A DNA stretch of 32,000 bases from Candidatus Nitrospira inopinata (GCF_001458695.1 NZ_LN885086.1:120001-152000), one strand, 5' to 3'; positions 12,681-23,820 are shown, counted from the first letter of the stretch. Notes: generated by a model from the sequence alone, not told the origin. Program-made: numbers and translations.

Positions 12681-12779
12681 CCGGCGCCCATGGGGTGTCG
12701 TGATCATGTGTCGGTTGACGATGCTCACTTTTGACTCCACAGTCACATTCCCCTCTTCCGCCTCTCCGCTTCATTATTG

Positions 12780-14342
12780 ATGACTCATCCCGCCTCACAC
12801 GTTTCTCGCGGCTTTTTGCTGTTCACGGCCCTGGTGACCGGCGCCGTCGTGATGGCGCTGGAGATCATCGGAAGCCGTCTCCTGGCGCCTGTCTTTGGGA
12901 ACTCGCTCTACGTCTGGGGAGCCTTGATCGGCGTGATCCTGGCGGCGATGAGCAGCGGCTATGCCTTCGGAGGCTGGATGGCCGACCGTTACACGGGCGG
13001 CGGCGTGTTGGCCGCCCTCCTGCTTGGCTCCGGCAGTTGGACCTTTCTTGTCGCCTGGGGGAACCAGCCGGTGCTCTTCGAGATCGAGAAGCTCGTGCAA
13101 GACCCTCGGTGGGGCCCTTGCCTGGCTGCGACCGTGCTGCTTGCGCCGCCGGCGTTCGGACTGAGCGGCGTGCTGCCGGCCATGCTCCGATTGGCCGTCT
13201 CGGACATGGCCCACATGGGATTCCACGCGGGCCGCATGATCGCCCTTTCGACGGTCGGCAGTTTAGCCGGCACCTGGGGAACGGCTTTTTTTCTCCTCTC
13301 GTGGATCGGCACCCAGTCGCTCCTCACGTGGCTGGGGATCATTCAGATCCTGCTCGGCCTCCGGTGGTTGATCACGGGAACGGCGGCTCGCGCATCCATA
13401 CGACTGGTGGCGATGGGCGGCTCCGTCATCATCGGCATCCTGCCCTGGTTCCCGATCCAGCGACTCAATCAACCGATCTATCAAGAAGATAGTCCGTACC
13501 AACAGGTGCGGATTCGCGATGACGAGCTGTTTCGGTATTTGATCCTGGACCGCACGTTCCACGCCACCATGTGGAAAGCCGATCCGGCGGCCCTCTTCCT
13601 CCCCTACAGTCAACTGATGGTGGCAGCGCTCGCCCTCACGCCAGAGCCCAAACGGGCACTCATCCTCGGCCATGGAGGAGGTTCGATTGCCAAGTGGCTC
13701 GCGCGCCAGTGGCCGACGCTGGACGTGGACGTCGTGGAGGTCGATCCCGCCGTCGTCCGGATGGCGGAGATCTATTTCGACTATCACCCTTCGGCCAATC
13801 ACCATGTCTTCGTCAAAGACGCCAGAGCCTTCTTAAGAAGCACGGATCGGACCTACGACGTCATTTGGATCGATGCCTTCGCGCGAGACATGATCCCGTT
13901 TCATTTGACGACTGTTGAGTTTTTTGCTCTGGTGCGAGCGCACTTGGCACCGGAGGGAATCGTGGCGGTCAATCTCGCGTCATCCGGCACGGAGGGAGAC
14001 CTAGCCAGGGCTGCATCGGTCGTTCAGACCATGAAACGGAGCTTTCCGACGATCGAAACCTTTGCAGTCGAAGGTCCCTGGAAGACCGGCATGACCCTGG
14101 CCAGAAATCTGATCTTTTTCGGAGGGCGTCCGATCGAAACCGGCTCGATCGACGAGATCGTGAACAAGATCACCAACATGGCCATGCAACGGCGAGTGCC
14201 GATCGAAGCCATCGCGCTCCTCAGCACCCACCGAACCGAACCCTGGCCGGCCGGCATCGAATTGACCGATGATTTCGCGCCGTACGATCTGCTGATCGGA
14301 CGGGAACAGGGAGCGCATCAACGGGAGGACCGGGGCTCCTAA
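12780..14342 (+). CDS. Fused polytopic membrane domain / spermidine-synthase-like (class I methyltransferase fold) protein
   Basis: The N-terminal ~200 aa has several hydrophobic helices. The C-terminal half has LILGHGGGSIAKWL...VDVVEVDPAVV...YDVIWIDAF, typical of the spermidine synthase fold. ATG is at 12780; the track start at 12777 is TTG. Confidence 0.8.
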   Translation: MTHPASHVSRGFLLFTALVTGAVVMALEIIGSRLLAPVFGNSLYVWGALIGVILAAMSSGYAFGGWMADRYTGGGVLAALLLGSGSWTFLVAWGNQPVLFEIEKLVQDPRWGPCLAATVLLAPPAFGLSGVLPAMLRLAVSDMAHMGFHAGRMIALSTVGSLAGTWGTAFFLLSWIGTQSLLTWLGIIQILLGLRWLITGTAARASIRLVAMGGSVIIGILPWFPIQRLNQPIYQEDSPYQQVRIRDDELFRYLILDRTFHATMWKADPAALFLPYSQLMVAALALTPEPKRALILGHGGGSIAKWLARQWPTLDVDVVEVDPAVVRMAEIYFDYHPSANHHVFVKDARAFLRSTDRTYDVIWIDAFARDMIPFHLTTVEFFALVRAHLAPEGIVAVNLASSGTEGDLARAASVVQTMKRSFPTIETFAVEGPWKTGMTLARNLIFFGGRPIETGSIDEIVNKITNMAMQRRVPIEAIALLSTHRTEPWPAGIELTDDFAPYDLLIGREQGAHQREDRGS

Positions 14343-14386
14343 CGTCACCCCTGTTGCCGACGGCATAGCGACAGCTCCCGTGACAC

Positions 14387-15199
14387 ATGGACAGCACTAG
14401 AAAGAAACGCCCCAGCGCACCCCTTTTCGACCGCTATATCGGCATCGACTATTCCGGCGCGAAGACCCCGACCGAAAGCCTGAAGGGGTTACGGATTTAC
14501 CTCGCCGACCATGACCACGATCCGGCAGAGATCCTCCCCCCACCAAGCAGGCGCCGCTATTGGACACGCAAGGGTGCCGCACAATGGTTGCTTGAACGAT
14601 TGAGCGAACCAATCAGAGCTCTGGTCGGCATCGATCATGGCTTTTCTTTCCCTCTGCAATATTTTAAGCAACACCGGTTGCCGTTCGATTGGCCGGCGTT
14701 TCTCGAAGATTTTCACCGCCACTGGCCGACCGACGAAGACCATGTCTCGGTTGATGATGTCCGATACGGCGGAGTCGGCACGGGGCAGGCTCGCTTGGGC
14801 CATCCCCGGTGGCTGAGACTGACCGAGCAACGGGCTCGCGCGGCCAAATCGGTCTTTCGGTTCGACGTGGAAGGATCGGTCGCCAAATCCACCCATGCTG
14901 GTTTGCCGTGGCTGTTGATGATCCGCCGGCTGGCTGGAACACACGTCCACTTCTGGCCCTTCGATGGATGGGAGATTCCCTCCGGGCTCTCAGTCATCGC
15001 GGAGGTCTATCCCTCGCTCTGGCGGCGAGAAATCCCAACAGAGAGACGGACCTCTGATCAACAGGACGCCTATGCCGTCGCCGCATGGATGAGGAAGAGT
15101 GACCAGGCTGGCACCTTGGCCGGCTATTTCTCACCGACCTTGACATCGGCGGAACGAGCGCAGGCCTCTATTGAAGGCTGGATCCTCGGTGTTCGCTGA
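14387..15199 (+). CDS. Hypothetical protein, possibly an RNase-H-fold (DUF429/COG-type predicted nuclease) protein
   Basis: 270-aa ORF with coding-like composition. YIGIDYSGA near the N-terminus, VGIDHGFSFP, EVYPSLW and QQDAYAVAAWM near the C-terminus resemble the acidic-residue layout of DUF429-like RNase H fold proteins. The assignment comes from motif memory only. Confidence 0.6.
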   Translation: MDSTRKKRPSAPLFDRYIGIDYSGAKTPTESLKGLRIYLADHDHDPAEILPPPSRRRYWTRKGAAQWLLERLSEPIRALVGIDHGFSFPLQYFKQHRLPFDWPAFLEDFHRHWPTDEDHVSVDDVRYGGVGTGQARLGHPRWLRLTEQRARAAKSVFRFDVEGSVAKSTHAGLPWLLMIRRLAGTHVHFWPFDGWEIPSGLSVIAEVYPSLWRREIPTERRTSDQQDAYAVAAWMRKSDQAGTLAGYFSPTLTSAERAQASIEGWILGVR

Positions 15200-15223
15200 G
15201 TGGAACTCAATAGATGTTCATCC

Positions 15224-15252
15224 GCATGGACAAAGGTCATTCTTGTCCATGC
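15224..15252. terminator. Hairpin between convergent genes (weak terminator candidate)
   Basis: The 10-bp stem gcatggacaa (15224-15233) pairs with ttgtccatgc (15243-15252) around a 9-nt loop. It overlaps the stop at 15237. No adjacent T-run. Confidence 0.3.
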
Positions 15253-15473
15253 CGACGTAGGTACGTTTTCAACCGGTCAAAACGCTGGTCGGCTTCGAGG
15301 TTAGGCGCCGCAGCCTGGATTGCTTCCAGGCAGGCGCCAAGCTCACTGGGCGGCCACTGGGCCTGGTCGCCGACCACGCGACTCAACAAGTCAAGAGCCG
15401 CTTCAGGGAACCGGCCACAGAGACCGGATTCATGAAGCTTATAGACAAGATCTTCAGGGTAGTCCAGCGGTTT
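15237..15473 (-). pseudogene. Displaced C-terminal tail (77 codons) of the SIR2 giant protein, reachable only by a +1 shift; alternatively a separate small ORF
   Basis: The distal part of ORF 15237..15650 reads PLDYPEDLVYKLHESGLCGRFPEAALDLLSRVV...RLKTYLRRHGQE, which is protein-like. The proximal 60 codons overlap the SIR2 frame and look non-coding. There is no RBS for an internal start. Confidence 0.5.
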
Positions 15474-18400
15474 GCAGCCAGTCTCGCAGTTGGGCCACTG
15501 CCTCCGGCAAGGCATCACCAGCCGCCACACACAGGCGGCCGAAACACTCCGCAACAACGGGCGATGCATGGACCTTGTTCTTCGGCCAAATGTCTCGCAA
15601 GTACGGCACAACGCGATTGGTCCAGAAATCGCTCCGTTGATCGCCGGCACCCTCCAATTCCCTCACTAAGGCCCGTGCCGCCTCGTGCAAGCCATCTTGC
15701 GGCAAGGCACGGGTCGCGGTTGCCAGTTCGTCCACGGTAAAGATGTCGCCTGGATCGAGGGCGGCAAACGTCAGCACGGCCGCGTACTGTTTTCCGTCCC
15801 TGCCGAGTTGCCCATAGTGGCTGGCGGTGTCGAGAAACGCAGTCTTGAATGCCTTCATCTCCATCAAGGGGCGGTACAGTCGCGGCGACCAGAGGAACCC
15901 CTCCCACGCAGCCCGTGCTTCAGCCTCGGACCGCTGCCAATCGAAGAGAGGCAGCAAGTGCTGCAGGGTCCAGTCACGGTCCACGCGAAACAAGGTGATA
16001 ACATGGGCAGCCAGCAAAACGCGGCCATGCCGGAACTTCTCGATAGTGGTGTTGCACAGATCCGTAAAGATGCGCTTTACCTCCTCCGGCAACCCTTGGC
16101 CGTCTTCCAGTCCTTGACGTTCCCACCAGCGTAAAAGTGCCTCGGTCACGTGACCCACCGGGTGATTGATGGCGATCTCAACCATGTCGTCGGTTGTCGT
16201 GCCTTCATGATCCTCATCTCTCAGCTCCAGAATACGTCGCGCAAGCGCGAAAAACCGTTGCTCATGCTCTTTGAAGTCCCCGGCAACCTCCTTGAGCCAA
16301 TAACTCATAGGATGGGTCAATGCCTGCAACGGCGCATCAGGAGCCTCGGCCAACACTGCTGCCAGAAGACGCCGCGGCCGGTTGAGGTGAGTTTTCTTGG
16401 GCCAAGCGTAGAACGCTTCTTCCCACCGATCGACCGGCCACACTCCCTCCTTGGCCAAGGCATACAAGGCGCACACGACGGTCGGGAATTTCTTTTGACA
16501 GAGCTGTTTCCAGTCGTCTTGTCGCCAACGGTCCCTGGCGGGGTGCCGCTTGAGCCATTCGACCAACTCTTTGCGGCGACGGGGTGTTGCGTGGAACGTG
16601 CGCCACTCACTCCCATCACCCATCCGAACAGGAAACTCGTCTCGCTCATCTGCGGCCAAGGTCCATTGCGGATACTGAGCCGACAGGGCATCCAGGCGAT
16701 CTTTGGCATCGCCGTCCAGCGGTACCCCGGTAGCGGCGACCTTGGCCAGGCGTAGCCAGACCCCCCAGTCCACGATCCTCGTCCAACGCTCGGGCTCGAT
16801 ATCGTCTTTGAACATCGCACGCGGTGGGCCGGCGAGGATGGCATCCACCAACACACGGCGCATGGGCTCGTCGAGTCGCGGTGCCAGCGAAACCAGCAAG
16901 CGCATGGTCTCGCGCTGGGTCTCCACCGACCAGAGCCACCAGCGATCATCCGCCAGTAGCCAGTCGAGTGCGCGGCGAGGCGGAATCACTCCGTCCTGCG
17001 CGGCGGCGAAGAAAGCCAACCGCTTAAACAGTGGGTACGGGATGTGCCTCCAGGGTTCCGCAACCAGCGCGGCTTGCTCCGGCGATTGCTGGACGGTGGC
17101 AAGCCAGGCATCTCTGGTCAGCTCGATCAACACGGTCCAATCATAGGAACCATGGTTCTGTGGATGCTGGCTGATCGATGGTTGATGTATGTAGGACAGG
17201 TCGCTTCGATCCTGCGTGCCGCCCAGTTCGCGCATCAGATCCAGCGCATCGCGCAACAGCATGGTGAAGTCCGGCAGCAGCTCCGGCAAAGCGGCTGTCC
17301 AGCGTTCATCCTTGGCCAGATCCCGTGAGGTGGCGCGGACATCTTCGGCCGAAAGCACGATCTCCCATTCGACGAGATCTCTCATGCCCTGCGGCCGGGC
17401 AGCCTCCACCCCATCCGATGGCCTACCGAATGGCTCGCGCAGCATTACCTGTGGGGTCAGGATGTTGCGCAGCTCCAGTCGCAAGGTGGCTGTGAGTCCT
17501 TGGTGTTTGAAATGGTTGCGCCAACGGACGAGAACGAACTGGTGACGCCACGACTTGACCCGCCCGGTCAGCAGCAGCAACCACAGTGTGCGCATCAGAG
17601 GGCTGGGGATCGCCTGGGGCGCGCCTTCTTGGATGCGCGCCAGCTCGCCCGTGTTGCCCTCACGCTCGTACTTCGCGATCTCGTTCAGGCGGCACTCGAT
17701 TTGCCGGACGAATTCGTCGTGCAATCGGCCACCACGCTCGACCAGCCACAACAGCAGTGCGGGATCGCCGAGATGGCGCGTCAGCCAGCGCGCCAGGTGG
17801 CGCATCACGGCATCCCATCGGCTGCCATGTGCGCCCACATCCACGACGCACATCGAAGGTGCCAACGGATACGGCGACGGGCGGCACATCAGGCTAAACG
17901 ACAGCTTGTCATCGACCACCGGCTGGGGCGCGGCCCCAAAGCGCGCGAGATCGGCAGAGCCAAATCGCTTTTCGCTCAGTGGCGCCAACCAATCCAGTGA
18001 CGGCACGGGGTTCAGCTCGGCGAAACGCTTGGCAGGCAGGCCGCTCGGATCGCTGAGCGCCCACAGCATGCGGGGAACAAAATAGTCCTGCTTCGTGCTT
18101 GCCAAGGGGCGGACCATCGCGCTTTCCACCACGATGCTTTCCTTGCCGCGCAGACCGTCCCGGTAGGTTTTCGCCCATTCCCACAGGGTCTTGTGCAGGT
18201 AGGCATGGCGTTTATGTTCACGGTACAAGATGGGTGTGACGTTCTTGGCGCGCCACTCGTTGGCGCGCTCGTCCTCTTTGCCTTTTGAATAACTGCCGAA
18301 TGCGAACATCTCCGGCGGCGATTCGCCGAGCAGGCGGTCGGCAGCAAGGGCGTCCATCATGTAGCACAGCACGGGGTCGTTGATGCTGTAGCCAACGAAG

Positions 18401-19032
18401 CACACCGTATAGCTGCGGAACAGCTCGCTCACGAAGCGTGAGGCCCAGCGCTCGGTTAGGTAGGCCAACCCAAAATCGCCGCTGGAGACAACCAGCCGGT
18501 CCAAGTCGCTCGGCGTGGGGGATGGGGTGAGCAGGCCGTGCAGATAGACCAGGCCATTCCACCGGTTCTTCGGTACCGGCAGCAGTGGGGCTTGAAAACG
18601 CTCGATCGCCCAGCCCTTTGTGGCGATAACCTCCTCGAAGAGTCGATCGAAGTTGGTAGTGATGAGTCGCGTGCGGCCATCGCGGGTCCTGCCCAGAGTC
18701 AGCAAGGCCTCATGGGTGGCCGTCGCGGTGGGTGCGGCGAGGTTCGGCGTCAGAATGCTTGCCAATTCCCGGCGTACCGCTTCACGCCCTCTGACGATGT
18801 CGCCTTCCAGCAAGCCGATGGCCGTGTCGAACTGTCCGGCCTTGATGGCCGTCGCCTGCACCGCATTGGGCGTGACGGACAGCCTGGCGTAGAGCTCGCG
18901 CACCAGCCCGCCGAATCCCGGTAGTCCCGCGGGGTAGGAGATGCCGGCTCCGCAGAAGAACACGACGCGTCCTTCTTCATGCGCTTGGAGGAGCTGTTCG
19001 GGAACGTCTGGACCGTTGCGGACGAACTGCAT
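15454..19032 (-). CDS. Giant SIR2-family protein (N-terminal SIR2_2-type NADase-like domain plus ~900 aa helical region); DSR-like defence sirtuin candidate
   Basis: 1192-aa ORF. Motifs: VVFFCGAGISYPAGLPGF, TTNFDRLFE, LVYLHGLL, VVSSGDFGLAY, VCFVGYSINDP. The long W/L/R-rich C-terminal region has no motif I can name. Confidence 0.85.
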   Translation of the reverse strand: MQFVRNGPDVPEQLLQAHEEGRVVFFCGAGISYPAGLPGFGGLVRELYARLSVTPNAVQATAIKAGQFDTAIGLLEGDIVRGREAVRRELASILTPNLAAPTATATHEALLTLGRTRDGRTRLITTNFDRLFEEVIATKGWAIERFQAPLLPVPKNRWNGLVYLHGLLTPSPTPSDLDRLVVSSGDFGLAYLTERWASRFVSELFRSYTVCFVGYSINDPVLCYMMDALAADRLLGESPPEMFAFGSYSKGKEDERANEWRAKNVTPILYREHKRHAYLHKTLWEWAKTYRDGLRGKESIVVESAMVRPLASTKQDYFVPRMLWALSDPSGLPAKRFAELNPVPSLDWLAPLSEKRFGSADLARFGAAPQPVVDDKLSFSLMCRPSPYPLAPSMCVVDVGAHGSRWDAVMRHLARWLTRHLGDPALLLWLVERGGRLHDEFVRQIECRLNEIAKYEREGNTGELARIQEGAPQAIPSPLMRTLWLLLLTGRVKSWRHQFVLVRWRNHFKHQGLTATLRLELRNILTPQVMLREPFGRPSDGVEAARPQGMRDLVEWEIVLSAEDVRATSRDLAKDERWTAALPELLPDFTMLLRDALDLMRELGGTQDRSDLSYIHQPSISQHPQNHGSYDWTVLIELTRDAWLATVQQSPEQAALVAEPWRHIPYPLFKRLAFFAAAQDGVIPPRRALDWLLADDRWWLWSVETQRETMRLLVSLAPRLDEPMRRVLVDAILAGPPRAMFKDDIEPERWTRIVDWGVWLRLAKVAATGVPLDGDAKDRLDALSAQYPQWTLAADERDEFPVRMGDGSEWRTFHATPRRRKELVEWLKRHPARDRWRQDDWKQLCQKKFPTVVCALYALAKEGVWPVDRWEEAFYAWPKKTHLNRPRRLLAAVLAEAPDAPLQALTHPMSYWLKEVAGDFKEHEQRFFALARRILELRDEDHEGTTTDDMVEIAINHPVGHVTEALLRWWERQGLEDGQGLPEEVKRIFTDLCNTTIEKFRHGRVLLAAHVITLFRVDRDWTLQHLLPLFDWQRSEAEARAAWEGFLWSPRLYRPLMEMKAFKTAFLDTASHYGQLGRDGKQYAAVLTFAALDPGDIFTVDELATATRALPQDGLHEAARALVRELEGAGDQRSDFWTNRVVPYLRDIWPKNKVHASPVVAECFGRLCVAAGDALPEAVAQLRDWLQTAGLP

Positions 19033-19253
19033 GGCGCGATCCTACCCCTGTTGCGAGCCCTTGTCATCAGTCACACAGGCCGCTTCCACCGAACGCCAAA
19101 GGTATCGTCGAACGCACGTCGCGCAAGACATGAAGCGCCTTGGCGGCAATCACAGACCGGCAATGAAATTTTCTCGACGAGCTGCCGGCAGCAGAGTGGT
19201 TGCCGGATGTGAGGCGCCGAGACGCCACGGCGGTGCATGCCAGGCAAAGTTCC

Positions 19254-19288
19254 ACAAATAAAAAGGGGGAGCCCGAAGGCTCCCCCTT
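19254..19288 (-). terminator. Rho-independent terminator of the RRM gene
   Basis: The 9-bp stem gggggagcc (19265-19273) pairs with ggctccccc (19278-19286) around a cgaa loop. On the minus strand it is followed by TTTTTATTT (19256-19264). It lies 25 nt downstream of the stop at 19313. Confidence 0.8.
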
Positions 19289-19312
19289 TCGCTCACAGCT
19301 CTCGTCGGCCGT

Positions 19313-19615
19313 TTAGAAGCGGCTACGCCGCTCGCCGCCGCCGAATCGCTTTCCGCCGGAACGCGGTTCCTGCGGTTTCGCCTCGTTCACGGTCAGGGTG
19401 CGTCCGTCCATCTGAGAGCCGTTCAGCGCGCTAATCGCCGCCTCGGCTTCCTCTCGCGTGGACATTTCCACGAAGCCGAAGCCCCGCGACTGCCCGGTGA
19501 ACTTATCCGCGATGACGCGGGCGGATTCGACCGTCCCGTGCGTCGCAAACAAGGTGGTGAGTTGTGAATCGGTCGCCGAATACGGCAACCCGCCGACGTA
19601 AATTTTTGAACCCAT
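19313..19615 (-). CDS. rbp: RRM-type RNA-binding protein with a Gly/Arg-rich tail, 100 aa
   Basis: MGSKIYVGGLPYSATDSQL (RNP2) and SRGFGFVEM (RNP1). GAGGAGG lies upstream of the ATG at 19615. The track start at 19720 is rejected. Confidence 0.9.
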   Translation of the reverse strand: MGSKIYVGGLPYSATDSQLTTLFATHGTVESARVIADKFTGQSRGFGFVEMSTREEAEAAISALNGSQMDGRTLTVNEAKPQEPRSGGKRFGGGERRSRF

Positions 19616-19887
19616 CTGGGTCCCTCCTCGTAAAATGAGATGACATTGCCTGTGACGCGAGAACTTGCACGAGAGGAAAGCAGGAACCACAGACGCGAGT
19701 GTTGAAGCGGCTAGGATCACCCTTCCGGTCGGACTCTCGGTACCAACAACATCGATAATGGGCCTTCGCCAATACCATCTTCCTTCAGGCCCGACTCAGG
19801 AAGACTGTTGCACCATAACAGAACGCACGGCGAATAGCTACTCCGATATGCTGCGCCGCGCACGACCGAATCCAGAGGATACACCGA

Positions 19888-20199
19888 TCAGTAGAGCGGC
19901 TCTTGCGGCCCCCATCGCAGTCCGGCCAGATCGGGATCTTCTCCGTCGCGCGGCGCGGGCCTCGCGTTTTTCTCCGCCTTGCGAAGGGCGCGCCTTGCTT
20001 CTTTCTCCTTGCGGATGTTCTGCAAGGCTTTTTCACGGTCTCGCTTCGCCGACGTGGTTTTTCCTCCGCGTCCGATATGTCCCTCCTTGGCGCTCTCTGC
20101 CGATCTTCCGTCAGATGACGGCCGCGTATGATTACTCGGTCGCCCCTCGGCGTCCGACTCCCCGGACACCGTCCTGCCGAGCGTCTTCCGATTCGACAC
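19888..20199 (-). CDS. Hypothetical basic low-complexity ORF (may be the frameshifted continuation of 20132..20404)
   Basis: 103-aa ORF. The C-terminal part GGKTTSAKRDREKALQNIRKEKEARRALRKAEKNARP looks like a charged helix. No family recognised. Confidence 0.3.
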   Translation of the reverse strand: MSNRKTLGRTVSGESDAEGRPSNHTRPSSDGRSAESAKEGHIGRGGKTTSAKRDREKALQNIRKEKEARRALRKAEKNARPAPRDGEDPDLAGLRWGPQEPLY

Positions 20200-20404
20200 C
20201 CTTCGTACGGGAACGCACTCCTTGTCCCAACCCTCTGCTTGCCATCAAAGACACCGCTTGCCGGATCGACTCAATTGAAGCCGGCTCTCTTCCTTCATCA
20301 GGCGCGGACAGCCCCAGCAGTTCCCACCGAATGTTCGGTTTTCGCGCGGGGGCGCGTTTCCGTTTTTTGGCCTGCATGCCTTTAATAAACGCCGTCCTGT
20401 TCAT
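20132..20404 (-). CDS. Hypothetical basic protein, 90 aa
   Basis: AGGAG lies 8 nt upstream of the ATG at 20404 (MNRTAFIKGMQAKKRKRAPARKPN...). The rest is low-complexity and overlaps the next ORF out of frame. Confidence 0.35.
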   Translation of the reverse strand: MNRTAFIKGMQAKKRKRAPARKPNIRWELLGLSAPDEGREPASIESIRQAVSLMASRGLGQGVRSRTKGVESEDARQDGVRGVGRRGATE

Positions 20405-20698
20405 GGCCATATCTCCTAGGGTGACTCGCATGAGACATCCGACCGCCGATGCGCTCATTGCCTGGCACCGCGGCTTTCGCGCGGTACTGAGGAGCTTTCT
20501 CCTGAAAACCGGACAGTCCGTGGATCGCCACACACGCCGGAGAGACGATAACGATTCGCGCAAGAACCGTCGCAGGGGGGAAGGCGCGAGACGTGCCGCT
20601 CGTTCGTAGCGTAGGACACTTTACCATGCGCAACGATCGGAGTCCAATCCCCCGCAGCAGCTTCCTTCCGACACGCCGCCAGGCTAGAAACCAGAACA

Positions 20699-21217
20699 GC
20701 AGAAAGAAAACAGGCTACTTTTCTGGGATTTCCGTGGCCGGATGCGCGGGTGCATGGTCGATTCCAAGCCCCAGGGTGATGCACTCATCGCTTGCCAGTC
20801 TGCTCTGTCGAAAGATTGCGGCGATTCCCGCAAGGGCGCAGCGTGGCACATTCATGATCAACGATGGACTGCGCCATCCACACCAGCTGGTCGGGAGAGC
20901 TGTGGAAGGGAGCAGGATCGCACAGATGTGGCAATCGCAGGCTCGCCCAGGGGGCAGTCCATCTCACATGCACCAGCCCGGCTCCGAAGTGCGGAGCCGG
21001 GGAGAGACAGCCGTTAGGTTGGAGCGGGACACTTTATGAAACGGCTTGGCCACAGACGCCTGTGGCTTCAGTCGTGACGCGGGGAGCGGCGGACATGGCT
21101 GGCCATCTACCACTGTATCGATGAGTCAAGGACTGCCTCGGTGGCTAGCTGATGATTGGGCATGAGGCAAACACCGAAGCGCTCTAACGGGAAGTGGCGT
21201 TCGGGGGCCAGTCGAGA
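20699..21217. repeat. Direct repeat copy A: 252-bp module 1 (20701-20952), 205-bp variable insert, ~60-bp module 2 (21158-21217)
   Basis: Hand alignment to 23060-23311 at a constant offset of 2359 gives 8 mismatches in 252 nt and no gaps. Module 2 aligns to 23338-23401 with several substitutions and two small indels. Confidence 0.9.
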
Positions 21218-21864
21218 CAAACGCTGGAGTCGCTGGCCTTATGGAAGACCGTGGCGCCACCGTTGCCGCGATTCAGCACATGATAGACGTATCCACCCAC
21301 TTGCCCGCGAAGCATCCGAGGCAGAGCAGAAGTCCGGCCCTCCACACGGAGGCCATGACAGAAGCGGTGCGCAAGGAAACAAGACCGAAGGTGGAGAAGG
21401 CTGTGAGGAATACAGACTCCGCCCAGAAAGGGCTTGACGAGCCTGAGAGATCAGACAACAATCCGGTCTACATGGTCCTCACGGACCGGGTAAGGACGGA
21501 GGATTGACGATATGAACCGATCCGATTCGGACGAAGCTGGGGAAAGCGGGAACATTGGCAGTCCAGTCCCCTCCGTCTCCGGACCATATGGCGAAGATCA
21601 AGATGGCAGCAGGGCATCACTGGCATGCCCAAGCTCAGGCCACAGATTACACCTTCGAGCATGCTTTTACGACGCATCCAATCGAATACGACGATATTCT
21701 AACGGCTCACGAACTGCTCGGTCACACGGCTGTCGACACCGCCAACAGAAAGAGATATTCACATGAAGTTGAACAAAGGCCGCTACAGGATGAGAAGTCC
21801 GGTTAACAATCTATAAAAGTGTTTATACAGACTGTCCCAACACTAGTTAGGTAACAACTAGGCA

Positions 21865-22173
21865 ATGGGCTTCAGATTTCGCATAGGCCCGTTTACGTTC
21901 GGACGCACCGGAATCCGGTTGAGTCTATGGCGTTTCGGGGCTGGTATCTCAGTGCCCTTGTTCGGAAAAGGCCGCTCTTATGGCAAGATAGGCTTCGGTC
22001 CACTAAGCTGGCATTTCGGCAGCTCGCGTCGAGCAAAGGACGGCTGGAGAAATGATCCAGCGACCGAACGACAAAAGAGCTTCGCCGATGAATTGGGAAT
22101 CAAGTACCCAGAAAACGTAACCAAAGGTCAGCTGGTAGACATGATTTCCCAGGCAATGCGGAGCAATAGATGA
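21865..22173 (+). CDS. DUF4236-like small protein
   Basis: MGFRFRIGPFTFGRTGIRLSL...GISVPLFGKG matches the N-terminal DUF4236 pattern as I recall it. The C-terminus ATERQKSFADELGI...TKGQLVDMISQ is a helical motif common in phage/island proteins. It sits in the AT-richer DNA. Confidence 0.55.
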   Translation: MGFRFRIGPFTFGRTGIRLSLWRFGAGISVPLFGKGRSYGKIGFGPLSWHFGSSRRAKDGWRNDPATERQKSFADELGIKYPENVTKGQLVDMISQAMRSNR

Positions 22174-22261
22174 TCGCGAAAAAACAAGCGCCGTGGCAAC
22201 CGCCACCTGGCAATCACATTAGACGGCGCTGCGTGCCGCCACTGATGCTGGGAGATTAGCC

Positions 22262-22486
22262 TCAATGCCGGAAGACGGCGCATGGCTCGCACAACGTGAC
22301 ATTTAGGATGCCGGAGCGATCGCTGAAAAGGCCGATCGTAAGTTCAATGTCAAATGTAACGGCGAGATGGTCAGCCAGTTGAAAGTATCCAATGGAACGC
22401 GTGCCTGAGTTCCTAAGAATGGCCCATTCGGCTACAAACTCGGCTGGGTCAAGTTCGACGAACTGATGTAAGAGCGCGAGAAGCAT
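22262..22486 (-). CDS. Hypothetical ORF or gene remnant
   Basis: It is the only ORF in 22.2-22.5 kb (MLLALLHQFVELDPAEFVAEWAILRNSG...). No RBS and no recognisable family. The longer track version overlaps the toxin start. Confidence 0.25.
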   Translation of the reverse strand: MLLALLHQFVELDPAEFVAEWAILRNSGTRSIGYFQLADHLAVTFDIELTIGLFSDRSGILNVTLCEPCAVFRH

Positions 22487-22504
22487 GAGAAGGGCTGAGC
22501 CGCC

Positions 22505-22849
22505 ATGGCTTTCAGGATTACGATCACGGAAGACGCGGACAGGCAACTGCGGTCCTTGCCGGTGCGCGAGCAACGAATCCTGGAAGCGGCAATCTTGTCC
22601 CGACTACAGCACCAGCCCACGATAGCCACGAAAGCAATCAAGCTCCTGAGGTCGAATCCTCTGGCCGAGTTTGAGCTACGGGCAGGTGACCTGCGAGCCC
22701 TGTATAATGTCGAAGGAGACGAAGTTGTCATCCTGGTCGTCGGGCGAAAGGTCGGCAATACGTTGATTGTGGAAAGTGAGGAGTTTCATGGCCATCAAAA
22801 CGATCCCGCTGAGCCGCTTGGAAACGGATTTGAAAAAGACACTGAATGA
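22505..22849 (+). CDS. RelE/ParE-superfamily type II toxin
   Basis: MAFRITITEDADRQLRSLPVREQRILEAAILSRLQHQP...EFELRAGDLRALYNVEGDEVVILVVGRK follows the RelE/ParE fold pattern (..yRlRvGdyRviY.v....v.il.vg.R). Confidence 0.75.
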   Translation: MAFRITITEDADRQLRSLPVREQRILEAAILSRLQHQPTIATKAIKLLRSNPLAEFELRAGDLRALYNVEGDEVVILVVGRKVGNTLIVESEEFHGHQNDPAEPLGNGFEKDTE

Positions 22850-23042
22850 GTGCGCCGAGTCGGGTGAGACCATCGTCGTCGAAATGCCGGATCAACGGCT
22901 GTTGGCAATCCAGTCATTGGACCCCCAGCAAGACGACAGTCTCACCGATGAACTGCTAGCGACTAATCCAAAGTTCCAGGCTTTAGTAGCGAAATCGAAG
23001 GCCAGCCCGCGCAAGCCCTTCGCTGCGGGAAGCGGAGGCTAA
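22788..23042 (+). CDS. Phd/YefM-type antitoxin
   Basis: The ATG at 22788 lies after GTGAGGAG. MAIKTIPLSRLETDLKKTLNECAESGETIVVEMPDQRLLAIQSL matches the Phd/YefM N-terminal domain pattern. It overlaps the toxin ORF by 62 nt. Confidence 0.7.
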   Translation: MAIKTIPLSRLETDLKKTLNECAESGETIVVEMPDQRLLAIQSLDPQQDDSLTDELLATNPKFQALVAKSKASPRKPFAAGSGG

Positions 23043-23057
23043 CAAACGGCTGAAGGG

Positions 23058-23401
23058 GCAGAAAGAAAACAGGCTACTTCTCTGGGATTTCTGCGGCCGG
23101 ATGCGCGGGTGCATGGTGGATTCCAGACCCCAGAGTGATGCACTCATCGCTTGCCAGTCTGCTCTGTCGAAAGATTGCGGCGATTCCCGCAAGGGCGCAG
23201 CGTGGCACATTCATGCTCAACGATGGACTGCGCCATCCACACCAGCTGGTCGGGAGAGCTGTGGAAGGGAGCAGGATCGCACAGATGTGGCAATCGCAGG
23301 CTCGCCCAGGGCCAGCCCCTCGCACATTCGACGCCTGGGGCATGAGGCAGACGCCGAAGCGCTTTAACGGGGGGAAGTGGCTTTCGGCGAGCCAGTCGAG
23401 A
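23058..23401. repeat. Direct repeat copy B: module 1 (23060-23311), 26-bp spacer, module 2 (23338-23401)
   Basis: See copy A. This copy ends 70 nt from the tmRNA 3' end. Confidence 0.9.
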
Positions 23402-23470
23402 GTTGGGGATATGTTCCGCGGGTTGGTGTCGAGACTTCGATAAAGAGCCCACAACTCGAGAGATTGGAAA

Positions 23471-23820
23471 TGGTGGAGGCGCCGGGAGTTGAACCCGGGT
23501 CCGAAGATCGTCAGTGCACTGGTTCTACATGTGTAGCCGGTGTTTTGAATTCGCCGCCGCCCACGCCCATCGGCAGGCTTAGAACGGCCGCTAGCCCAGT
23601 ATTGTCTCGTCCTCGGCCGCTGAGCACCGACCTTGGACCAGCCCGCTGCATCGCGCCGTTCCACCCCCGCGGGCCTCAGATGGAACGACGTCACGGCTTA
23701 ATTAAGCCGCGAGTGCCAGTTCTTGATTGGCAGTTGCTTGTTTCCCGGAGGTTTAACGAGTCCCCGAGAGCTCGACATGCGACAGTGACCTCAGTATCCC
23801 CGTCGAAACCGGTCGCCCCC
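23471..23820 (-). ncRNA. ssrA: tmRNA (transfer-messenger RNA)
   Basis: The minus strand starts GGGGGCGACCGGTTTCGACGGGG and ends GGACCCGGGTTCAACTCCCGGCGCCTCCACCA (acceptor/T-arm with encoded CCA). The internal tag frame GCA ACT GCC AAT CAA GAA CTG GCA CTC GCG GCT TAA encodes ...ANQELALAA. Confidence 0.95.

Follow-up and report, generated by a model that had tools for sequence, protein, structure and literature searches.

A probably frameshifted dsr1 gene, encoding an anti-phage defence-associated sirtuin, at a variable locus of Candidatus Nitrospira inopinata

What kind of SIR2-domain protein is encoded next to ssrA in Candidatus Nitrospira inopinata, and is its gene still intact? The window analysed is a stretch of 32,000 nt from this organism (GCF_001458695.1 NZ_LN885086.1:120001-152000), in which positions 15237-19032 on the minus strand encode a giant protein with a SIR2 domain. 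The initial annotation saw a defence-type SIR2 in a single-protein DSR architecture, left the ~900 aa that follow without an assignment, and proposed that this sensor might be a new variant. The architecture is supported by matches to DSR1 profiles, and the gene is almost certainly DSR1 (defence-associated sirtuin 1). The correct label for the locus is dsr1 (anti-phage defence-associated sirtuin) with a frameshift; a new family of SIR2 sensors it is not.

The interval spans the frameshifted gene, as was already implied by talk of repaired and native alleles. At position 15237 a second ORF ends (15237..15650, minus strand), which lies in another frame, is open for 137 codons and encodes the final 77 aa of the profile of the family; the repaired DSR1 is 1264 aa long. 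The main frame contains the following features:

15454..19032, minus strand: DSR1 main reading frame, 1192 aa, made up of 1187 authentic residues and 5 out-of-frame residues (TAGLP) before a premature stop
18163..19032, minus strand: predicted N-terminal SIR2 NADase domain, aa 1-290, a region that aligns to the KomC SIR2 NADase
18652..18654, minus strand: codon of Asn127 (TTNFD), the predicted catalytic Asn
18538..18540, minus strand: codon of His165 (YLHG), the predicted catalytic His
15474..18162, minus strand: DSR1 helical sensor upstream of the frameshift, aa 291-1186

All the motifs that had been listed as a complete SIR2_2-type set are present: VVFFCGAGIS at aa 23 (GAGIS itself at aa 28-32), TTNFD at 125, YLHG at 163, VSSGDF at 182 and GYSINDP at 214. 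Pfam SIR2_2 covers aa 122-268 (18229-18669; E 1.6e-23) and is the sole family found in the protein by a Pfam scan at E<=0.01; DUF4020, named in the initial annotation as a frequent fusion partner of SIR2_2, did not appear in it. The SIR2 motif residues, including N127 and H165, are invariant in 40 homologs (alignment A2). In a PDB sequence search, H165 is aligned to H146 of KomC, the residue mutated in PDB entry 9xvc, “KomC(H146N)”. The common SIR2 motif suggests that Asn127 is the equivalent of DSR2 N133, the role of which is described in PMC10981675. An AlphaFold2 model of aa 1-420 from alignment A2 had a mean pLDDT of 45.1 and was unusable.

The rest of the protein is indeed rich in Trp, Leu and Arg, as first noticed, with 4.0%, 12.9% and 9.7%, respectively, over the 975 aa that follow the SIR2 domain in the repaired numbering. 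Its AlphaFold2 model is essentially all-helical, with a mean pLDDT of only 65.9, and Foldseek comparison with the PDB retrieves only generic HEAT/ARM-type solenoids (PP2A-A, importins, CAND1) at TM 0.15-0.24. The model thus suggests an α-solenoid for which the fold search names no specific relative. A structural likeness to DSR1 or DSR2 had been put forward as a check; the helical solenoid was recovered, but the DSR2 likeness was not, as DSR2 is not among the 50 Foldseek matches listed. The PDB sequence search (E<=0.01) likewise retrieved no chain of DSR2, and PADLOC gave no match to Dsr2.

The family assignment comes from sequence profiles. Even the truncated ORF scores 1808.9 bits with the NCBIfam equivalog NF041818 (Dsr1), against a cutoff of 1400, and spans positions 1-1193 of the 1263 in that profile; PADLOC PDLC02183 (Dsr1) gives 1517.8 bits over positions 1-1201 of 1275. 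The HMM and PADLOC searches that had been recommended are thus positive for SIR2_2 and for both Dsr1 profiles. The E. coli Dsr1 annotated in RefSeq (WP_104681761.1) is 52% identical over aa 1-1187, so the region once left unassigned belongs to the known DSR1 sensor. There are 4,225 homologs from several phyla, typically 1260 aa long and about 70% identical, many of which carry the NCBI name “anti-phage defense-associated sirtuin Dsr1”. A search with the sensor only retrieved 2,569 cluster representatives, and the best 150 of these are mostly proteins of ~1230-1290 aa in which the match starts from ~aa 290, together with shorter fragments. With curated profiles that cover the full length and this many relatives of the sensor, the idea of a new variant has to be given up. 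Judged by sequence, the gene is a canonical, ordinary DSR1 member over the whole protein, and the family was already known.

The copy has the sequence features expected of a DSR1, with one exception. A SIR2 domain with its NAD-binding Gly motif and the predicted catalytic Asn and His lies at the N-terminus, followed by a C-terminal helical sensor of ~970 aa that is homologous to that of characterised Dsr1. What is missing is the uninterrupted frame of ~1260 aa including the C-terminal tail, as a 1-nt insertion leaves the tail in another frame. The copy is a probable pseudogene of the DSR1 family, still a member by descent. It is also a single-gene system without a conserved partner, since the neighbours are wholly different in the window and at the loci L002-L004, L035 and L036. 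The adjoining gene, p270, has no relative in Pfam or the PDB. It was considered as a partner and rejected, as tblastn finds no match to it in L002-L004 and it is present without DSR1 in L010.

Compared with E. coli Dsr1 and its family, the protein shares collinear homology over the whole length, the SIR2 residues (GAGxS, Asn, His), the sensor and the 77-aa tail, as well as the single-gene organisation and variable contexts associated with mobile elements. It differs from E. coli Dsr1 in being only 52% identical, in its Nitrospira host, and in having lost the tail to the additional A at codon 1188. On infection, NAD+ is depleted by DSR1 (bioRxiv 10.1101/2021.12.14.472415). DSR2 of Bacillus subtilis, for which cryo-EM structures have been solved, is a SIR2 NADase activated by a phage tail-tube protein (PMC10981675). 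It follows the same logic, with an N-terminal SIR2 NADase, Asn and His as catalytic residues and a large C-terminal α-solenoid that senses a structural protein of the phage, but there is no detectable sequence similarity and the reported triggers are unlike.

A 2026 preprint (PMC12803255) reports that the toxicity of EcDsr1 is triggered by a major capsid protein and that the Dsr1 sensor is homologous to that of Avs7, a STAND NTPase that senses the major capsid protein through TPRs. According to the same preprint, the Avs7 sensor recognises the HK97-fold major capsid protein. The effector is SIR2 here and a Cap4 nuclease in Avs7, and the family-conserved sensor region follows SIR2 directly, without the central NTPase of Avs7/AVAST; the Pfam scan of the DSR1 protein gave no NTPase family. 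With ThsA of type I Thoeris and with KomC, the only protein retrieved by the PDB sequence search (which gave no DSR1 or DSR2 structure), the likeness is confined to a SIR2 NADase domain with an aligned catalytic His. PADLOC ThsA matches are weak (27.9 bits) and restricted to SIR2 (aa 13-264). Unlike these systems, the protein has no SLOG/STALD, no ThsB partner and no sensor for a signalling molecule. The flanking genes are p270, without a family, and an RRM_1 protein, so neither a ThsB (TIR) neighbour nor an adjacent HerA-like ATPase gene, as in SIR2-HerA, is found.

The interruption of the frame involves two features:

15471..15473, minus strand: frameshift site, AAA here and AA in relatives (CTGCAAACCGCTGGAC vs CTGCAACCGCTGGAC), a 1-nt insertion after codon 1187
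15237..15470, minus strand: out-of-frame C-terminal tail of DSR1, 77 codons and a stop (PLDYPEDLVYKLHESG...RRHGQE)

Relatives read CTGCAACCG at this site, and the extra A moves the frame at codon 1188. It is seen by comparison with the DNA of L021 and L008, two Nitrospira loci that both lack the added base, and the frameshift is the derived state. The displaced tail matches positions 1178-1274 of PDLC02183 and 1192-1263 of NF041818; of 124 full-length representatives of the family, 113 have a recognisable tail, and it contains many nearly invariant residues. Relative to L008, overall dN/dS is 0.23, and the SIR2 part gives 0.055, which indicates that the gene was under constraint until recently; values below 1 do not fit long-term neutral decay. 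We consider it probable that the frameshift is genuinely present in the DNA. From the truncation, loss of function is somewhat favoured, and the most likely reading of the copy is a defence gene that was inactivated, or if not that impaired, in the recent past. Only 6% of the length is missing, and some activity might remain. A count of deviations from residues that at least 97% of homologs share gives 33 for the window, compared with a median of 6 and with 22 in the nearest relative; this count was rejected as evidence of decay because the set was picked by similarity to the window, which is its outgroup.

The extra A could be an artefact of sequencing or assembly, in which case the gene would be intact and functional and the full 1264-aa protein would be made. 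The tail frame is fully open for its 77 aa and, by eye, still looks very similar to the corresponding end of P0008, a Nitrospira homolog; dN/dS values, at 0.23-0.31, point to purifying selection, and single-base indels in homopolymers are a common type of error. However, the run has only three bases, the remaining copies at the locus also look damaged or missing, and an independently built second assembly, a Logan contig (L005, SRR22137117), carries the extra A within 3,633 bp of 100% identity, which leaves an artefact unlikely. The Logan contig may come from the same reads, and an assembly error could explain the extra base in both. Neither form of the junction, with or without the extra A, was matched when JGI metagenome contigs were scanned for the exact pattern.

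If the frameshift is real, the truncated 1192-aa protein could still work, alone or with a tail peptide translated on its own from the frame at 15237..15650, so that regulation or specificity would be altered and defence not abolished. Neither catalytic motif is affected, 92% of the sensor is intact, and the overlapping ORF with the tail stays open throughout. Nevertheless, essentially all family members keep the tail, relatives without the extra A are contiguous, and there is neither a ribosome-binding signal nor a known precedent for a split DSR1, so we regard a working truncation as improbable. Programmed frameshifting, by a ribosomal +1 shift or by transcriptional slippage, would also give the full-length protein, and the shift does sit in a short run of A. 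It was rejected as highly improbable, since the homologs whose sequences were inspected and the DNA of L021 and L008 pass the site without an extra base; CAA-ACC is not known as a slippery site, and A3 is too short for slippage. Least credible, to the point of being hardly conceivable, is a housekeeping sirtuin or protein deacylase, or an unrelated new SIR2 sensor family outside the known defence systems. The SIR2 fold is common to deacetylases, but the Pfam match is to SIR2_2 and not to classical SIR2, the DSR1 profiles are matched over their full length, presence at the locus is variable, and homologs lie beside restriction-modification and mobile-element genes.

The reading that we prefer, and hold to be likely, is that of a horizontally acquired DSR1 that has been frameshifted and most likely inactivated or impaired. 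By homology, an intact DSR1 would be inactive until its sensor meets a phage protein, which by analogy with E. coli Dsr1 would be an HK97-fold major capsid protein; the E. coli protein from which a capsid trigger is carried over is only 52% identical. The SIR2 domain, through Asn127 and His165, would then deplete NAD+ and halt phage replication, an NADase activity likewise ascribed by analogy. Within one Nitrospira subclade, the cassette would have arrived horizontally in the variable interval that runs from a spermidine-synthase-like gene to ssrA, and insertion of the single A at codon 1188 would then have cost this genome the conserved last 77 aa.

The surroundings of the gene are as follows:

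19039..19067, minus strand: two promoter-like hexamers (ATGACA, 17 nt, TAGGAT) immediately 5' of the ATG, a weak consensus match
19261..19290, minus strand: intrinsic terminator of the upstream RRM-protein gene, with a 13-bp stem, 8 GC pairs and a T-run, kept in L010
19313..19720, minus strand: RRM-protein gene (Pfam RRM_1), upstream of DSR1
15203..19255, no strand given: DSR1 cassette as a presence/absence unit, ~4.05 kb, replaced in L010 by ~113 unaligned bp
23471-23820, minus strand: tmRNA gene (ssrA)

The upstream terminator and the spacer of about 220 bp were correctly recognised at the outset; the spacer from the terminator to the ATG at 19032 measures ~228 bp, which supports DSR1 being its own transcription unit, set apart from the RRM gene. 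One promoter-like pair was found and 1.2 were expected in shuffles, so that on its own it is no evidence. A permissive Rfam scan of 14300-23500 gave only the tmRNA and a sub-threshold sRNA match on the terminator. The ORFs 22505..22849 and 22767..23042, read by eye as a RelE/ParE-type toxin-antitoxin pair, were rejected, without Pfam or NCBIfam support.

Comparison of 28 Nitrospira loci confirms that the segment ending at ssrA is accessory: DSR1 is variably present and is not a syntenic core gene, and the SpdSyn-ssrA interval is a variable cargo site in Nitrospira. In more distant Nitrospira, the tmRNA comes immediately after SpdSyn, or other cargo lies in between. Among close relatives, L010 and L009 lack DSR1; in L010, a MAG locus, the RRM terminator comes within ~45 bp after the p270 stop codon. 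L021 (SZTDM-2_Bin289) has an internal 1,958-bp deletion in DSR1, with its junction at 17023/18982, that takes away the SIR2 domain, and L008 (JZ-3_Bin7) has a different 1-nt frameshift (-1 C) at codon ~107. The lesions in L021 and L008 are on MAG contigs with a titled coverage of ~1.6-3 and could be artefacts.

The tract from p270 to DSR1 is 97.5% identical to that of L021, with dS at 0.3-1.0 in the core genes on its flanks. It is conceivable, though doubtful, that all the lesions are real, that the cassette was lost repeatedly and independently in one Nitrospira subclade (the window, L008, L021, L010 and L009), and that the p270-DSR1 tract was exchanged between lineages. If true, this would be a natural example of how a defence gene that depletes NAD+ decays quickly, driven by its cost, at a hot spot next to ssrA. 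If the lesions hold up in reads, the differently damaged copies make a small case study of defence-gene turnover. Nitrospira, a lineage of nitrifiers with few characterised phages, is added to the hosts of DSR1; beyond correct annotation, the importance of the locus is small.

Elsewhere, a homolog with 79% identity has a type I R-M system on one side and RadC/Mrr/HNH genes on the other, with TrwC/TrwB conjugative-transfer genes on the same contig, and one E. coli dsr1 copy adjoins an integrase near tRNA-Leu.

The giant SIR2 gene of the window, with the neighbours that bear on it, comprises the following features:

15454..19032, minus strand: main DSR1 (defence-associated sirtuin 1) ORF, ATG start, 1192 aa
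15237..15650, minus strand: second ORF in another frame, carrying the end of the DSR1 family profile
15471-15473, minus strand: frameshift site, with one extra A (AAA) relative to the Nitrospira copies and homologous proteins
14387..15199, plus strand: p270, the convergent downstream neighbour of DSR1, 270 aa
19313..19720, minus strand: RRM_1 RNA-binding protein gene (Pfam), upstream of DSR1
19290-19261, minus strand: terminator of the RRM gene, 13-bp stem
23471-23820, minus strand: tmRNA (ssrA)

By sequence, the main ORF encodes a canonical DSR1 over its entire length, beyond the SIR2 part. The SIR2 motifs quoted in the initial annotation are all found in it: VVFFCGAGIS (aa 23), TTNFD (aa 125), YLHG (aa 163), VSSGDF (aa 182) and GYSINDP (aa 214). 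The HMM searches proposed at that stage both gave matches, Pfam to SIR2_2 (PF13289, aa 122-268, E = 1.6e-23) and PADLOC to Dsr1 (1517.8 bits, aa 1-1188); SIR2_2 is the single Pfam domain, and the DUF4020 fusion mentioned earlier is absent from the Pfam result. With the NCBIfam equivalog NF041818, “anti-phage defense-associated sirtuin Dsr1”, the score is 1808.9 bits, well above the cutoff of 1400. Among 5.8 billion proteins, 4,225 homologs were found at E ≤ 1e-10. Most of the best 120 have lengths of 1250-1266 aa and identities of 69-80%; many carry the NCBI name Dsr1, and their sources are Pseudomonas, Stenotrophomonas, Dokdonella, Alcanivorax, Rhizobium, Desulfobulbus, Terriglobales and Nitrospira. 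Sequence identity of about 70% between phyla indicates that DSR1 has spread horizontally. One 79% identical homolog (P0002) has a type I R-M system on one side and RadC/Mrr/HNH genes on the other, and its contig codes for TrwC/TrwB conjugation proteins as well. Annotated dsr1 genes were matched by blastn in 76 of 5,426 complete E. coli genomes; E. coli Dsr1 WP_104681761.1 (1275 aa), whose gene adjoins an integrase in the vicinity of tRNA-Leu genes, shares 52% identity with the window protein and is collinear with it over residues 1-1187.

The part following the SIR2 domain is rich in Trp (4.0%), Leu (12.9%) and Arg (9.7%), and its AlphaFold2 model is almost wholly helical, as had been surmised. 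When this region alone (aa 290-1192) was searched against 1.84 billion representatives, 2,569 matches were obtained at E ≤ 0.001, 773 of them reaching E ≤ 1e-30; within the top 150 of the 2,569, the full-length proteins are about 1230-1290 aa and match from about residue 290, the rest being shorter fragments. Together with the DSR1 profiles and the E. coli identity, these matches identify the supposedly unassigned region as the standard DSR1 sensor. The initial annotation had the protein class right, but nothing points to a new sensor variant. The system is already known, and automatic annotation would give “frameshifted dsr1”.

Asn127 and His165 of the window protein are shared by all 40 aligned homologs, and their presumed DSR2 counterparts, N133 and H171, are needed for NADase activity (PMC10981675). 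In a phmmer alignment, His165 lies opposite His146 of the KomC SIR2 NADase, which is the position changed in PDB entry 9xvc, “KomC(H146N)”. The sensor model is of moderate quality (pLDDT 65.9) and resembles generic α-solenoids alone in the PDB (TM ≤ 0.24); the N-terminal model reached pLDDT 45.1. Neither the PDB sequence search (E ≤ 0.01) nor the 50 listed matches of the fold search with the sensor model contained a DSR1, DSR2 or Avs7 structure.

DSR1 cloned in B. subtilis confers phage defence with NAD+ depletion upon infection (Garb et al., bioRxiv 10.1101/2021.12.14.472415); the NAD+ loss is transient and the culture does not collapse (same preprint). Phage NARP1 rebuilds NAD+ and overcomes DSR1 (bioRxiv 10.1101/2024.02.11.579819). 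Lee et al. (PMC12803255, a preprint of 2026) report homology between the Dsr1 sensor and that of the STAND protein Avs7, a TPR sensor, and describe AlphaFold3 models in which the sensor is bilobed and sharply bent. Of the genes in their 73-gene phage library, the one for the major capsid protein was alone in triggering EcDsr1-mediated cell death, and cryo-EM of Avs7 showed an HK97-fold capsid protein enveloped by the sensor (PMC12803255). From these published results we infer, by homology, that the intact ancestor of the window DSR1 would have sensed a Nitrospira phage capsid protein and responded by hydrolysing NAD+.

The window DNA reads CTGCAAACCGCTGGAC at the frameshift site, where CTGCAACCGCT(G/A)GAC stands in the two closest Nitrospira copies and homologous proteins run uninterrupted through ...DWLQPLDHPEYL...; the A is considered extra because the DNA and proteins of relatives continue without it. 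Beyond codon 1187 the DSR1 frame reads TAGLP-stop, leaving untranslated a 77-aa tail (PLDYPEDLVYKLHESG...RRHGQE). The tail lies in the second ORF, which matches NF041818 positions 1192-1263 of 1263 and PADLOC PDLC02183 positions 1178-1274 of 1275 and whose stop is the lower boundary, 15237, originally assigned to the gene. Removal of one A yields a 1264-aa protein with zero internal stops.

The frameshift is probably real in the DNA. A Logan contig (L005, run SRR22137117) matches the window at 100% over 3,633 bp without gaps and so has the extra A as well, though it may share the window's reads. The dN/dS of DSR1 is 0.23 against the copy in L008 (0.055 for the SIR2 portion; 0.06-0.15 for flanking genes) and 0.31 against that in L021 (45 differences), which implies constraint over most of the gene's history and a frameshift that is either recent or an artefact. 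An artefactual A in an intact gene is the less probable of these, perhaps a one-in-five matter. A truncated protein that is still active is improbable: although the catalytic residues are in place, the tail is detectable in 113 of 124 full-length representatives of 50%-identity clusters, with many nearly invariant alignment columns, and by sequence is more than a dispensable decoration. Programmed frameshifting would also join the two ORFs and is very improbable, given relatives that read through in one frame. On balance, the window copy seems to have been inactivated recently and to be non-functional.

In the close subclade, defined by a SpdSyn (fused MFS/spermidine-synthase) gene at least 90% identical, the site takes these forms:

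Window: order p270, DSR1, RRM; DSR1 carrying the extra A (+1) at codon 1188
L008 (=L001, JZ-3_Bin7): order as in the window; DSR1 80% identical, apparently split at codon ~107, where a CCC run has lost 1 nt, around 15930 (=L001 9672-10004)
L021 (SZTDM-2_Bin289 MAG): p270, then DSR1 without window 17024-18981; extra A absent
L006: contig end within the DSR1 tail
L010: DSR1 absent; RRM terminator ~45 bp past the p270 stop
L009: p270 and DSR1 both absent

The apparent L021 deletion (1,958 bp, a length indivisible by 3; junction 14243/14244) takes out the SIR2 domain. Coverage by contig titles is about 3 for L008 and 1.6 for L021, making both lesions provisional. If the assemblies are taken as they stand, all three copies readable at this site are damaged and two genomes lack DSR1; these absences and varied states show that DSR1 is not a conserved core gene, in line with the variable presence originally expected. 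The p270-DSR1 tract is 97.5% identical between window 14300-17023 and L021 11521-14243, against a dS of 0.32 for the adjacent SpdSyn gene and 1.04 for the UDP-glucose dehydrogenase gene, which are far more diverged. This mosaic divergence suggests, at the sequence level, that the accessory tract was recently recombined or transferred between Nitrospira lineages. Recurrent cassette decay with lateral exchange within one subclade is a possible, mildly interesting leftover. Cassette GC (0.59-0.63) is the same as that of the flanks.

The proposal that DSR1 is its own transcription unit holds, with the RRM terminator and a spacer of ~228 bp before the ATG at 19032. For p270, no relatives were found in Pfam or PDB; it has a weak NCBIfam match to an unknown C-terminal domain of a MobB fusion protein (E = 3.6e-7), and its presence varies (missing in L009, kept without DSR1 in L010).

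Window genes were mapped onto 28 Nitrospira loci around the SpdSyn ortholog (window 12777..14342). In more distant Nitrospira (L011, L014, L016, L019, L022) the tmRNA lies ~200-700 bp past SpdSyn; elsewhere the interval holds unrelated cargo, namely a GT20 trehalose-phosphate-synthase-like gene and a BrnT toxin in L017 (11531-19868) and an AcrB-type efflux pump in L032 (868-8473), with a further cargo interval in L015 (11531-15350). The SpdSyn-tmRNA interval is thus a general variable site across the genus, which bears out the accessory segment ending at ssrA that had been described.

Between RRM and the repeats described below, ~19850-20650 (~0.8 kb) is ~85% conserved in L008 and L009, with zero family-matched ORFs and zero Rfam matches; its 314-aa plus-strand ORF has the appearance of a high-GC artefact. 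Directly 3' of ssrA, ~2.1-2.4 kb of GC 0.52-0.55 is flanked by a 254-nt direct repeat pair (20699-20952 and 23058-23311, 97% identical) and a 34-nt pair (21158-21191 and 23338-23371), and looks like a small insertion with flanking-sequence duplication; the repeat sequence occurs once in L021 and not in L008. Within this low-GC segment, an 83-aa ORF (21555..21806, plus) matches the C-terminal part of a tyrosine recombinase, integron integrase TIGR02249 (E = 1.6e-5, profile positions 251-301 of 315), and a 53-aa ORF (21184..21345, minus; ...GYVYHVLNRGNGGATVFHK...) resembles by eye an IS200/REP-type Y1 transposase N-terminus. Both look like mobile-element remnants at ssrA.
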